The notes beneath the pieces were generated by a model, which was not told the DNA's origin, searched no databases, and was given only the letters and a program-made list of their open reading frames with translations. Source: a virus (Duplodnaviria > Heunggongvirae > Uroviricota > Caudoviricetes). Taken from it: a stretch of 16,062 bases of DNA. The stretch is from positions 1-16,062 of the IMG/VR virus record IMGVR_UViG_2698536355_000012; one strand, 5' to 3'. The translations under genes and the position numbers were made by a program. Of this stretch, positions 6,355 to 7,200 are shown in pieces (the first letter of the stretch is position 1; each line of letters starts with the position of its first letter).

Positions 6355-7200
6355 CGGTTTACCCTCGTAATGGCGGCTGCCACCGCCAGTAAGTTATCTC
6401 CATACACAACAGATAAGAGCACCTGCGGCTGCAACCGCCCGGGTGGGTTGGGTTATGAGCCCGTCGCCCGGCGATGCTCTTATCTGTTGTGTGCTGGTCT
6501 TTCCCAGCTGTCAGCGGTCTACTTCCCGCCGTCACTGCCGTCGAGCGTGCTGGCATCTCACCGTTTTTACAGTTGAACGTCTGCCGCTGTTATCGGTGCG
6601 GAGCCGCCACTTCCCAGGACATTTATAAGGACCGTCTCCAAGTGGTAACTCTTCCAGTCCCGATAAACATCCTCGCAAGGGTGCTTATCGGGATTGAACG
6701 TTGTGACACCGGGTCGCTAACCCGCTTACTTCCTGCCGCTCTGTTTTGGTATTGGCCGCCAGAAACTGCGGCTCAGCCGATTTACAGGTCTTTGCGTCGG
6801 CCGGCGCTGCAGCTCGCTTGAGCACATCACAACTGGAAGCGCACTCTTTCAGTTACAAACCAGTCCCCACGACCGATGTTAGATAGAATGCGCTTGCATG
6901 TTGTGCCCTGAAAAAGCTGGCGGTGACCGCGGACATAAGGGAAAACACGGGCCGCCAGAAAGGGTCGTTGGCAATAACAGGGATCTTCGGGCGGGGTACT
7001 GCTGACTAGGCAGTAACCCTACGGTGTTTCATAGCTGGTGCCCGTGGGTTGGACGGGACCGTGTTCACCAGATGATCGCGCTGGATTGGTAGTCACTCCA
7101 AACCGCAACCCCTCCCGAAGATACCTGTCAGCGAATCATCCGGTTATTCGTATGCCACCGGCGGCTACTTCGTGGGCATCCTGCCTGTTCGCTGTTGATG
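6355..7200 (-). other. ORF-poor, GC-rich, hairpin-dense leader of the leftward early transcript (candidate structured RNA or antitermination element)
   Basis: About 850 nt between the PL-like promoter and the first early-left gene. Only one minus-strand ORF of 60 aa or more (6359..6556), with atypical composition. Contains many local inverted repeats, e.g. 6404-6421/6475-6492, 6917-6923/6952-6958 and 6992-7019. Confidence 0.4.
6404..6492. repeat. 18 bp perfect inverted repeat (ACACAACAGATAAGAGCA / TGCTCTTATCTGTTGTGT) separated by 53 bp
   Basis: Read directly: 6404-6421 is the exact reverse complement of 6475-6492. The spacer is GC-rich and itself contains short complementary runs (GCGG/CCGC, CCGGG/CCCGG). 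Confidence 0.9.

Follow-up and report, generated by a model that had tools for sequence, protein, structure and literature searches.

In the lambdoid phages lambda and P22, the first sequence transcribed past the early leftward promoter PL is the nutL-N unit, which comprises the boxA and boxB elements of the nut site and the gene of the antiterminator N; the leader of lambda N also contains an RNase III site. The N-less phage HK022 has putL, an RNA element of about 70 nucleotides (nt), just downstream of PL (PMC9378689), and for phage LLS, in which N is absent, a put-like RNA was guessed in a 2025 paper (PMC12315714). A promoter-proximal terminator in a lambdoid phage can also give a functional small RNA (sRNA), as described for StxS (PMC7547250). 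Here, we describe the early-left leader in a 16,062-nt stretch of viral DNA (Caudoviricetes; IMG/VR record IMGVR_UViG_2698536355_000012, positions 1 to 16,062; hereafter the window). The window carries a lambdoid immunity region and belongs to an N-less lambdoid prophage of the ST64B/SfV type. Transcription from PL probably starts near 7199, and 6355-7199 is the leader of the early-left operon, with about 845 nt left untranslated. The leader lies in the same genomic slot as nutL-N; however, neither a conserved boxA nor a boxB nor an N gene was found in the window. An earlier reading of the letters alone (the original prediction) had pointed to this interval as GC-rich, rich in hairpins, and poor in open reading frames (ORFs), and had proposed a put-like but larger RNA element, a novel structured RNA, or a decayed gene as explanations.

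A folded non-coding leader behind PL

We found that the interval is a real non-coding and heavily folded RNA leader, the structure of which is kept by selection through compensatory change. It is a chain of at least six separable and exchangeable structured-RNA modules, each of which is recombined differently in other phages. On the minus strand, no ORF of 60 amino acids (aa) or more is present over the 644 nt past the promoter, close to the roughly 650 nt originally estimated, and 6355-7200 contains minus-strand ORFs of 46, 48, and 65 aa only. The 65-aa ORF (6556-6359) has no Pfam match and is broken by a stop at codon 11 in a relative with 91% identity (L077; L numbers denote loci used for comparison). 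The predicted density of hairpins is reflected in a minimum free energy of -351.8 kcal/mol, compared to -303.1 +/- 5.7 for dinucleotide shuffles (z = -8.5), none of the 20 shuffles being equally stable. With a GC content of 0.55-0.58, the leader exceeds the immunity region (0.45-0.47), while the flanking genes have 0.50-0.55; the interval had been called GC-rich.

If the interval were a decayed gene, it would be what frameshifting has left of N or some other early gene. Protein genes do occupy this slot in relatives, namely N-like genes in Photorhabdus and Xenorhabdus and cargo ORFs of 70-124 aa in IMG/VR loci, in SfV (orf33), and in mEp460. However, comparison with relatives from Klebsiella, E. 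coli, and IMG/VR that are 73-92% identical gave leader substitutions by position modulo three of 23/25/25 (P = 0.95), 14/16/17, and 4/6/5, whereas the adjacent DUF2303 gene showed the strong codon periodicity of coding sequence (18/21/125). The lengths of leader insertions and deletions (1, 2, 3, and 8) are likewise not confined to multiples of three. A tblastn search of the leader with ten proteins, i.e. four Photorhabdus/Xenorhabdus N-like proteins, lambda N, and five cargo proteins from the leader slot of relatives, yielded no match better than E = 0.5, over 8 residues. The N-like family phrog_271 was not found in a PHROGs scan of 15 window ORFs, although the same library does recognise the N-like proteins of relatives; the leftmost large ORF (1-1176) was set aside in the family scans. 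Conservation sits instead in helices with compensatory changes, and the non-coding modules of the leader are maintained in dozens of phages. We regard a decayed gene as barely credible on these grounds.

The novel structured non-coding RNA (ncRNA) that had been offered as the second explanation agrees with these data. Two of the checks suggested with it were carried out: the covariance-model search found no known family, since Rfam 15 gave no match over the whole window at gathering score and only meaningless microRNA or long non-coding RNA matches over 6200-7400 at E up to 10, and the alignment across relatives revealed compensatory pair changes and no codon-like conservation.

The features of the locus are compiled in Table 1. 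PL lies where it had been predicted, at about 7200-7235 and reading leftward, with the cI gene and its terminator upstream. It is flanked by GGTAAC/GTACC operator-like repeats at 7208-7234 and 7243-7269, and the same repeats are found at PR (7970-8060). Leftward of the yfdP-like gene follow genes for DUF2303/YfdQ, a deoxynucleotide phosphatase, an HNH endonuclease, an exonuclease, and an excisionase. The identical sequence is present in the NCBI assembly GCA_024852625.1, in which gene callers leave a 956-nt gap at this place. Comparably long unannotated gaps occur in ST64B (815 nt), SfV, cdtI, mEp460, phiNP, mEp390, Klebsiella phages, and E. coli prophages.

Table 1 Features of the early-left leader and its surroundings in the window, with the modules in the order of the minus-strand transcript (bp, base pairs; RBS, ribosome-binding site; SD, Shine-Dalgarno sequence)
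Feature	Position	Strand	Description
Cro gene, P22-type	8064-8261		followed by a CII-like gene
cI repressor gene, LexA-like	7311-7970	minus	Peptidase_S24 and HTH_3
Canonical terminator closing the cI gene	7297-7274	minus	directly upstream of PL
PL promoter	7234-7206	minus	TTGACC-17-TACATT, embedded in operator repeats
Module A	7197-7129	minus	three-helix junction, 65-70 nt long, at the 5' end of the transcript from PL
A helix P1	7192-7188/7135-7131	minus	
A helix P1a	7185-7183/7177-7175	minus	
A helix P2	7161-7157/7144-7140	minus	
Module U2	7128-6977	minus	branched interior; folding z -4.5
U2 closing helix	7128-7108/6997-6977	minus	21 bp, 2 mismatches
Module T	6959-6910	minus	hairpin CUGGCGG...CCGCCAG, then CUUUUUC
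Module U4	6905-6828	minus	first CACAAC...GUUGUG-type hairpin; bulged stem of ~17 bp; z -5.0
Module M	6827-6493	minus	
M hairpin H1	6692-6659	minus	
M core	6661-6605	minus	
M hairpin H3	6608-6594	minus	
M hairpin H4	6556-6535	minus	
M hairpin H5	6530-6513	minus	
Module D	6492-6404	minus	20-bp perfect stem, branched tip; z -8.1
D inverted repeat	6404-6421/6475-6492		18 bp perfect; extends to 25 nt at 88% complementarity
RBS-proximal segment	6403-6355	minus	contains UGGAGA
RBS-proximal hairpin	6389-6371	minus	CUGGCGG-UGGCAG-CCGCCA
SD	6366-6362	minus	GAGGG
yfdP-like gene	5983-6354 (start 6354)	minus	PF27127 YfdP / phrog_204; next called gene leftward of the leader

Exchange of modules among relatives

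BLAST against phage records covered at most 44% of the interval with any single record, and the matches fell into separate blocks. For module mapping, 80 IMG/VR loci were retrieved via the YfdP-like protein, and the leader mapped onto them as recurring blocks that differ in order and spacing. Many relatives have a non-coding leader of 490-510 nt composed of A, U2, a pseudoknot-like element, T, and D; others have T and D alone (about 265 nt, L026), and still others insert cargo ORFs of 70-124 aa between A and D. The additional 340 nt of the window, i.e. U4 and M, are 79-85% identical to Klebsiella phages and E. coli prophages, and the phages sharing them start their early-left operon with different genes, for example those of RdgC or ParB-like proteins. 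Parts of the leader are also present in phage LLS. Exchange extends to the interior of modules: the closing helix of U2 surrounds three unrelated interior sequences in relatives, and the tips of the CACAAC...GUUGUG-type hairpins are interchangeable among them. In many relatives, a second terminator-like hairpin lies immediately upstream of D.

The pseudoknot-like element is not part of the window. The segment CCACCGCGCCUGAUGUGGUUAAAAGCAGGC, which could fold into an H-type pseudoknot with CCAC/GUGG and GCCUG/CAGGC as the crossing helices, is deleted in the window, although many relatives conserve it; it is located between U2 and T in L069, L014, L021, and others, and directly after A in L013 and L080.

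Selection on the helices is evident in the hairpins U4 and D, which are of the same type. U4 is also present in Klebsiella phages, and D lies just upstream of the yfdP-like gene in SfV, cdtI, and mEp460, among the records inspected, and in related IMG/VR loci. The 18-bp perfect inverted repeat named in the original prediction is the D stem. Among 24 distinct U4/D-type stems from the window and relatives, 12 of the 19 pairs show double changes. Such changes fill 73 cells, compared to 20.5 for shuffles, with covariation scores of 0.523 and 0.193, respectively. The stems had been picked for complementarity, which biases the figure of 95% paired, but the compensations are unbiased. The tip of D contains GGGCUCAUAACCC (6462-6450) and a GCGG-UUGCAG-CCGC hairpin. 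Downstream of D, the RBS-proximal hairpin is kept in relatives with the loop UKGCAG.

The same segment contains a 14-codon frame (6402-6358, minus strand; AUG GAG AUA ... GGG UAA), which starts right after the 3' arm of D and stops 4 nt before yfdP. It has no SD, and its AUG is replaced by GUG or UGG in SfV, L086, and Klebsiella phages; the frame is probably not a leader peptide.

Module M combines an essentially invariant core with covarying hairpins. The core of about 57 nt (GGGACUGGAAGAGUUACCACUUGGAGACGGUCC..., with the core string GGGACUGGAAGAGUUACCACUUGGAGACGGUCCUUAUAAAUGUCCUGG..AGUGGCG) is found in at least 119 IMG/VR contigs and hardly varies in 44 diverse copies. The hairpins flanking it covary: one position of H1 shows five pair types (GC, UG, CG, AU, and GU), and a pair of H3 is C-G in 20 and G-C in 19 sequences.

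Inverted repeats of this kind could also act at the level of DNA, as protein-binding palindromes, cruciforms, or recombination junctions at mosaic boundaries. Module exchange occurs exactly at the conserved hairpin bases CACAAC/GUUGUG, which are possible recombination joints, and CTGGCGG...CCGCCAG palindromes occur three times. However, G-U wobbles are tolerated only in the minus-strand sense (UG at pair 18:25 of the stems in 14 sequences, GU in P1 of A); these would be A-C mismatches on the opposite strand, which argues for RNA rather than duplex DNA as the molecule under selection. The invariant single-stranded cores, i.e. the A junctions and the M core, are moreover not palindromic. A function of the repeats as DNA is hence highly improbable in our view.

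Module A and the control of early-left transcription

Module A has the consensus (A)CAGCGAACAGGCAGGAYGCCCACGAAGUAGCCGCC...GGCRUAUGAA...GAUGAUUCGC. Its junctions, CACGAAGUAGCCG and AUGA, are invariant, part of that invariance being forced by the search pattern. In an alignment of 30 sequences, 94% of the cells are paired and the three helices are supported. In four of the five P2 pairs, both partners have changed, two of these pairs occurring in four types, and P1 is fully compensated, with CCACC/GGUGG in Enterobacter cloacae, GUCAUC/GAUGAC in Serratia, and GCGAG/CUCGC as a further variant. The covariation score of 0.209 compares to 0.080 in shuffles, was reached by none of 500 shuffles, and lies above the 0.016-0.042 of slid controls. 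A covariance model of A, termed R1, scores 102 bits in the window; in phages and prophages from 11 named genera, it reaches 60-101 bits. Copies in Enterobacter, Klebsiella, Pseudocitrobacter, Serratia, Photorhabdus, and Xenorhabdus prophages reach 60-97 bits. A genome-wide 17-mer scan gave many chance matches in GC-rich genomes, and 16 strong R1 matches were among the first 100 of at least 120 stretches.

The location of A is as constant as its sequence. R1 finds exactly one copy per phage, always just past PL (window, phiNP, AH07, ST64B, ZF40, SfV, and mEp460). A is preceded by at least ten unrelated PL/operator types at a nearly constant distance to the -10 element, past which P1 starts after about 13-16 nt in aligned examples; ZF40 and AH07 have the operator/promoter type of the window, followed by A. 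The sequence that comes next varies: of 84 distinct contexts, U2 comes after A in 27, an ORF with an SD in 22, boxA in 7, and other sequence in 28.

These properties recall putL, and A, possibly together with U2, might be a cis-acting, put-like processive antiterminator, the nascent RNA binding RNA polymerase just past PL, letting it read through T and later terminators, and replacing N. With a beginning a few nt past the likely transcription start and a length of 65-70 nt, A agrees with putL in position and size (PMC9378689); it also contains unpaired nucleotides that never vary. As in HK022, terminators appear to follow downstream, here in the form of the conserved terminator-like T, and no N homologue was found among the 15 window ORFs scanned. 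The very high sequence conservation of A, which spans hosts from Escherichia to Photorhabdus and Pectobacterium, would fit a conserved host target such as RNA polymerase, and put, too, is highly conserved. HK022 put suppresses pausing and termination on its own, by contact with the zinc-binding domain of beta' in RNA polymerase, and rpoC mutations in this domain abolish its activity. However, A is a three-helix junction, whereas put has two stem-loops with a triplex, giving a two-arm V shape, and the whole leader is modular and twelve times longer than put. Compared by eye, only CAGGAUGA is common to both, and the A model does not show a relation either: with filters off, R1 had no match at HK022 putL or putR, the sole match in that phage (10 bits, E = 3) lying elsewhere. 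While put works in both early operons, no second copy of the A core was found in the window at up to 3 mismatches, and R1, run with filters off on the window and 14 related loci, detected none after PR. In addition, the siblings L026 and L049, which agree in PL/operator type, T, and D, have no A at all.

Phages with N give a further constraint. In the Photorhabdus/Xenorhabdus loci L102, L150, L157, L158, and L120, and likewise in L010 and L057, a canonical boxA (CGCUCUUUAACAA/CGCTCTTTAACAA) is found downstream of A, at a distance of 26-54 nt in the measured cases. In the three Photorhabdus loci L102, L150, and L158, a hairpin with a GNRA loop (GCGA or GAAA) comes after boxA, and an N-like gene (phrog_271) lies just downstream of boxA in L150 and L157, the two Photorhabdus boxA loci scanned. 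Photorhabdus thus has the full nutL-N unit, with true boxA, GNRA hairpin, and N, downstream of A, which bears out the original view that the interval lies in the slot of N. Since A is upstream of nutL and an N-like gene in these prophages, it does not stand in for N and nut there; A is a separate promoter-proximal element that N-bearing and N-less phages have in common. A put-like antiterminator in A is the main alternative but rather unlikely, although some RNA-based control of termination is conceivable. The single put-like but larger element that had been proposed for the entire interval is not supported, because at least six separable modules make up the leader as a mosaic, R1 does not match putL or putR, a PR copy was not found, and A coexists with N and nut.

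Leaders without A (Klebsiella phages L002, L089, and L090, as well as L092, L094, L004, L026, and L007) have other, mutually unrelated 5' modules directly after PL, for example CACAGGUACUGACAUUUACC...GGCAUAUGGCACAUGUGCC. This suggests that the alternative 5' modules are functionally analogous to A.

Two further candidates for A were discarded. A hammerhead is at odds with the lengths of the junctions, and Rfam did not reveal this or another known ribozyme or riboswitch core. An antiterminator pairing of GCCGCCGG in A with the 5' arm of T does not covary; L013 keeps GCCGCC, but its T reads CUGGCUG.

Antitermination could also depend on the D region, in which case boxA in the 3' arm and a downstream boxB-like hairpin would form a nut-like site recruiting Nus factors. 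As noted in the original prediction, a boxA-like string, UGCUCUUA, is indeed present in the 3' arm of D (6421-6414). It matches 7-8 positions of the boxA consensus, and the short RBS-proximal hairpin follows 25 nt on. However, the string is buried in the 20-bp helix and varies as a stem does. Relatives have UGCCCUU or UGCGCUU with a compensating opposite arm, and the diagnostic boxA position of the UGCUCUU arm is U, C, or G, pair 14:29 being GC in 15, AU in 5, and GU in 3 sequences. This covariation with the opposite arm means that the arm is not boxA, and no N homologue was found in the 15 window ORFs scanned; of the earlier claim, the presence of the string stands and its reading as boxA does not. 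A boxB with a GNRA-like loop beside boxA was not encountered either, the hairpin loop 25 nt away being UGGCAG. The window leader contains no conserved boxA of the CGCUCUUUA type; the true boxA, CGCTCTTTAACAA, is seen in relatives only, where it adjoins A and not D. A nut-like function of D is accordingly a very remote prospect.

RNA control of early transcription by premature termination is also known from the C4/CI and IsrK/seqA RNAs of P1, P7, and P4 (RF01695 and RF01394), and the leader might encode such an immunity RNA with its targets. SfV, which has A and D in common with the window, reportedly uses transcription-termination-mediated immunity, according to Roberts, Allison and Verma in 2007. 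The corresponding RNAs are present in SfV, ST64B, and cdtI, but Rfam places them in the rightward operon and not in the PL leader: the isrK and C4 pair lies on the plus strand at 5448-5636 in SfV (L003), 6356-6544 in ST64B (L001), and 5541-5729 in cdtI (L004), with 60-82 bits, above the Rfam thresholds. A P4-like termination immunity within the leader of SfV is therefore wrong. The window has no C4 or isrK match at gathering score over its 16 kb, nor one at E up to 10 in 6200-7400. There is next to nothing to recommend a C4-type RNA in the leader, and even when a decayed gene, a nut site, a C4-type immunity RNA, and an action as DNA are taken together, they remain improbable.

Possible attenuation and processing, and likeness to host RNAs

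About 240-290 nt downstream of the start, the transcript reaches T, which by its anatomy is a predicted conserved hairpin of the intrinsic-terminator type. It has a GC-rich lower stem of 7 bp, an upper stem of 3-5 bp, and an adjoining U-tract; a simple terminator scan missed it since the loop exceeds 8 nt. In the related loci searched, T occurs in 29 sequence variants with the tail C(C)U4-6. A lower-stem pair changes between G-C and U-A (5 of 17 sequences) and an upper-stem pair between G-C and A-U (3 of 17).

We consider it plausible, with chances only a little short of even, that the leader is attenuating and processed, and yields stable structured RNAs. Transcription from PL would first make A, which probably binds a conserved host component, as its invariant junction nucleotides suggest. 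A large share of the transcripts would end at T and give an abundant RNA of ~290 nt (A-U2-T), by which T would attenuate the left operon from yfdP through xis/int. Read-through RNA would be cut at the helices of 17-21 bp in U2, U4, and D, which may be substrates of the RNase III type. Against the benchmark of a near-perfect helix of about two turns, or at least 20 bp, U2 has 21 bp with 2 mismatches, D 20 bp without any, and U4 ~17 bp with bulges; long helices upstream of the RBS of the first gene are also reminiscent of the lambda N leader with its RNase III site. Cutting would release stable structured RNAs, namely the M core and the hairpin tips, and leave a processed yfdP mRNA, the translation of which might be set by the hairpin next to the SD. 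The leader would thus be both a gate on the early-left genes and a production line for phage ncRNAs acting on the host machinery. In having a strong phage promoter and a putative terminator within about 300 nt, so that a short RNA could be the product, the locus resembles lambda 6S (PR'-tR') and StxS (PMC7547250); however, those involve a Q-dependent late promoter, while the site in the window is PL, a Q-type loader is not evident, and the terminator is predicted.

That the modules are products and not mere spacers is suggested mainly by relatives, in which the same slots contain an sRNA look-alike with its own terminator as well as tRNA-like hairpins. Just upstream of D, L007 (2244-2342) and L058 (2204-2340) have a module resembling the host sRNA RprA (Rfam 44 bits, E about 0.03, threshold 70), in which AUUGCUGUGUGUAGUCUUUGCCC is an exact match to the RprA consensus, with a terminator hairpin and a U-tract behind it. 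The RprA-like seed also occurs in L037, L039, L078, and mEp390 (L094), and the module is possibly a phage mimic of the sRNA. Two perfect hairpins resembling the T-arm of a transfer RNA (tRNA), UCUGGUUCGAUUCCAGA and GUCCGUUCGAUUCGGAC, form the tip of the CACAAC/GUUGUG hairpin in L092 (a prophage of E. coli F5), L035, and L078, lying upstream of 2501 in the latter two. As in a tRNA minihelix, the second of them lies directly against the 3' strand of the long stem. In the window itself, the D tip with the preceding C (6463) is identical over 14 nt (CGGGCUCAUAACCC, 6463-6450, minus strand) to the anticodon arm of E. coli tRNA-fMet, the sequence of which was confirmed against 5,426 genomes. The match covers three G-C pairs and the loop CUCAUAA; among 73 occurrences of the tip motif in related loci, 51 show no change, and the variants keep CAU.

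Several observations weigh against an attenuating leader that releases host-directed RNAs. Once the polymerase has passed, flanking CCCU(G)/(C)AGGG pairing may enclose the U-tract of T, and compensated variants of this helix (CCCUU/AAGGG and CCCUG/CAGGG) are visible in relatives; T might thus be a structural element and not a terminator. Cleavage by RNase III is suggested only by helix length. Neither the RprA-like seed nor the T-arm-like hairpins are found in the window, so that the argument from mimicry draws on relatives, and the RprA match of 44 bits stays below the gathering score of 70. ARAGORN detects no tRNA or transfer-messenger RNA in the window or in 11 related loci, nor a cloverleaf or tRNA-like domain in the D tip. 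The tRNA-fMet match could be due to chance, the rough expectation being about 0.02 after allowing for all tRNA 14-mers. A partner protein for A was not found within 2.5 kb among 73 loci, the best protein cluster being present in 27 of 51 A-positive and 1 of 22 A-negative loci. Finally, the fixed place of A at the start of transcription suits a role in cis at least as well as one in trans.

A more far-reaching idea, which we regard as unlikely, is that enterobacterial lambdoid phages without N, and some with it, carry as their PL leaders exchangeable cassettes of ncRNAs directed at the host, the RNA counterpart of protein 'morons'. If this were true, A would represent a new class of nascent-RNA elements, which bind the transcription or decay machinery of the host right where the early-left transcript begins. 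Decoys or mimics would be released in the form of the M core and the hairpin tips (look-alikes of tRNA, RprA, and the initiator-tRNA anticodon arm), which re-program or disarm the host early after induction. Should the modules act on host machinery, they would add a new, RNA-borne layer to phage-host interaction.

The leader also bears on how early-left genes are controlled in N-less lambdoid phages such as ST64B, SfV, LLS, and prophages of Salmonella, Shigella, E. coli, and Klebsiella, and its modules mark a recombination hot-spot at which RNA and protein cargo replace each other. It supplies concrete objects for such work: A (at least 84 distinct contexts, 11 named genera), the T-type hairpin, and the M core. 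A, T, and the M core have no Rfam family and are unannotated in the phage records inspected. No description of the leader motifs turned up in literature searches, whether by topic or by sequence string, and neither did the core sequences of A, M, and D.

Some further candidates did not hold. A CsrB-like sponge for CsrA is not indicated, GGA occurring 14 times compared to 15.1 expected. H4 has only a 5-bp stem in common with a type I-F CRISPR repeat, and this is not conserved in the window. A resemblance to the RfaH ops element (8 of 12 positions) is restricted to one subtype and not conserved.

Short motifs recur along the leader. The loop of H5 displays GAAGUAGA, an echo of GAAGUAG in the A junction, and GAAGUA(G/A) is found three times on the minus strand, in the A junction (7171-7160), the M region (6737-6724), and the H5 loop (6530-6513), compared to 0.2 expected; GGA[UA]G occurs 7 times compared to 1.9 expected, both motifs having been chosen after the sequence had been viewed. 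Loops with (A/U)ACCCA(A/C) are present in all U2-interior and D-tip sequence types seen in relatives, and in the window at about 7050-7040 in U2 (CCAACCCACGG) and at 6455-6445 in the D tip (AACCCAACCCA). U4-type loops hold the complement, namely CGUGGG in the window (6868-6860, CGUGGGGAC) and UGGGU in L015, and a loop-loop contact of 6 bp between CCCACG in U2 and CGUGGG in U4 is possible.

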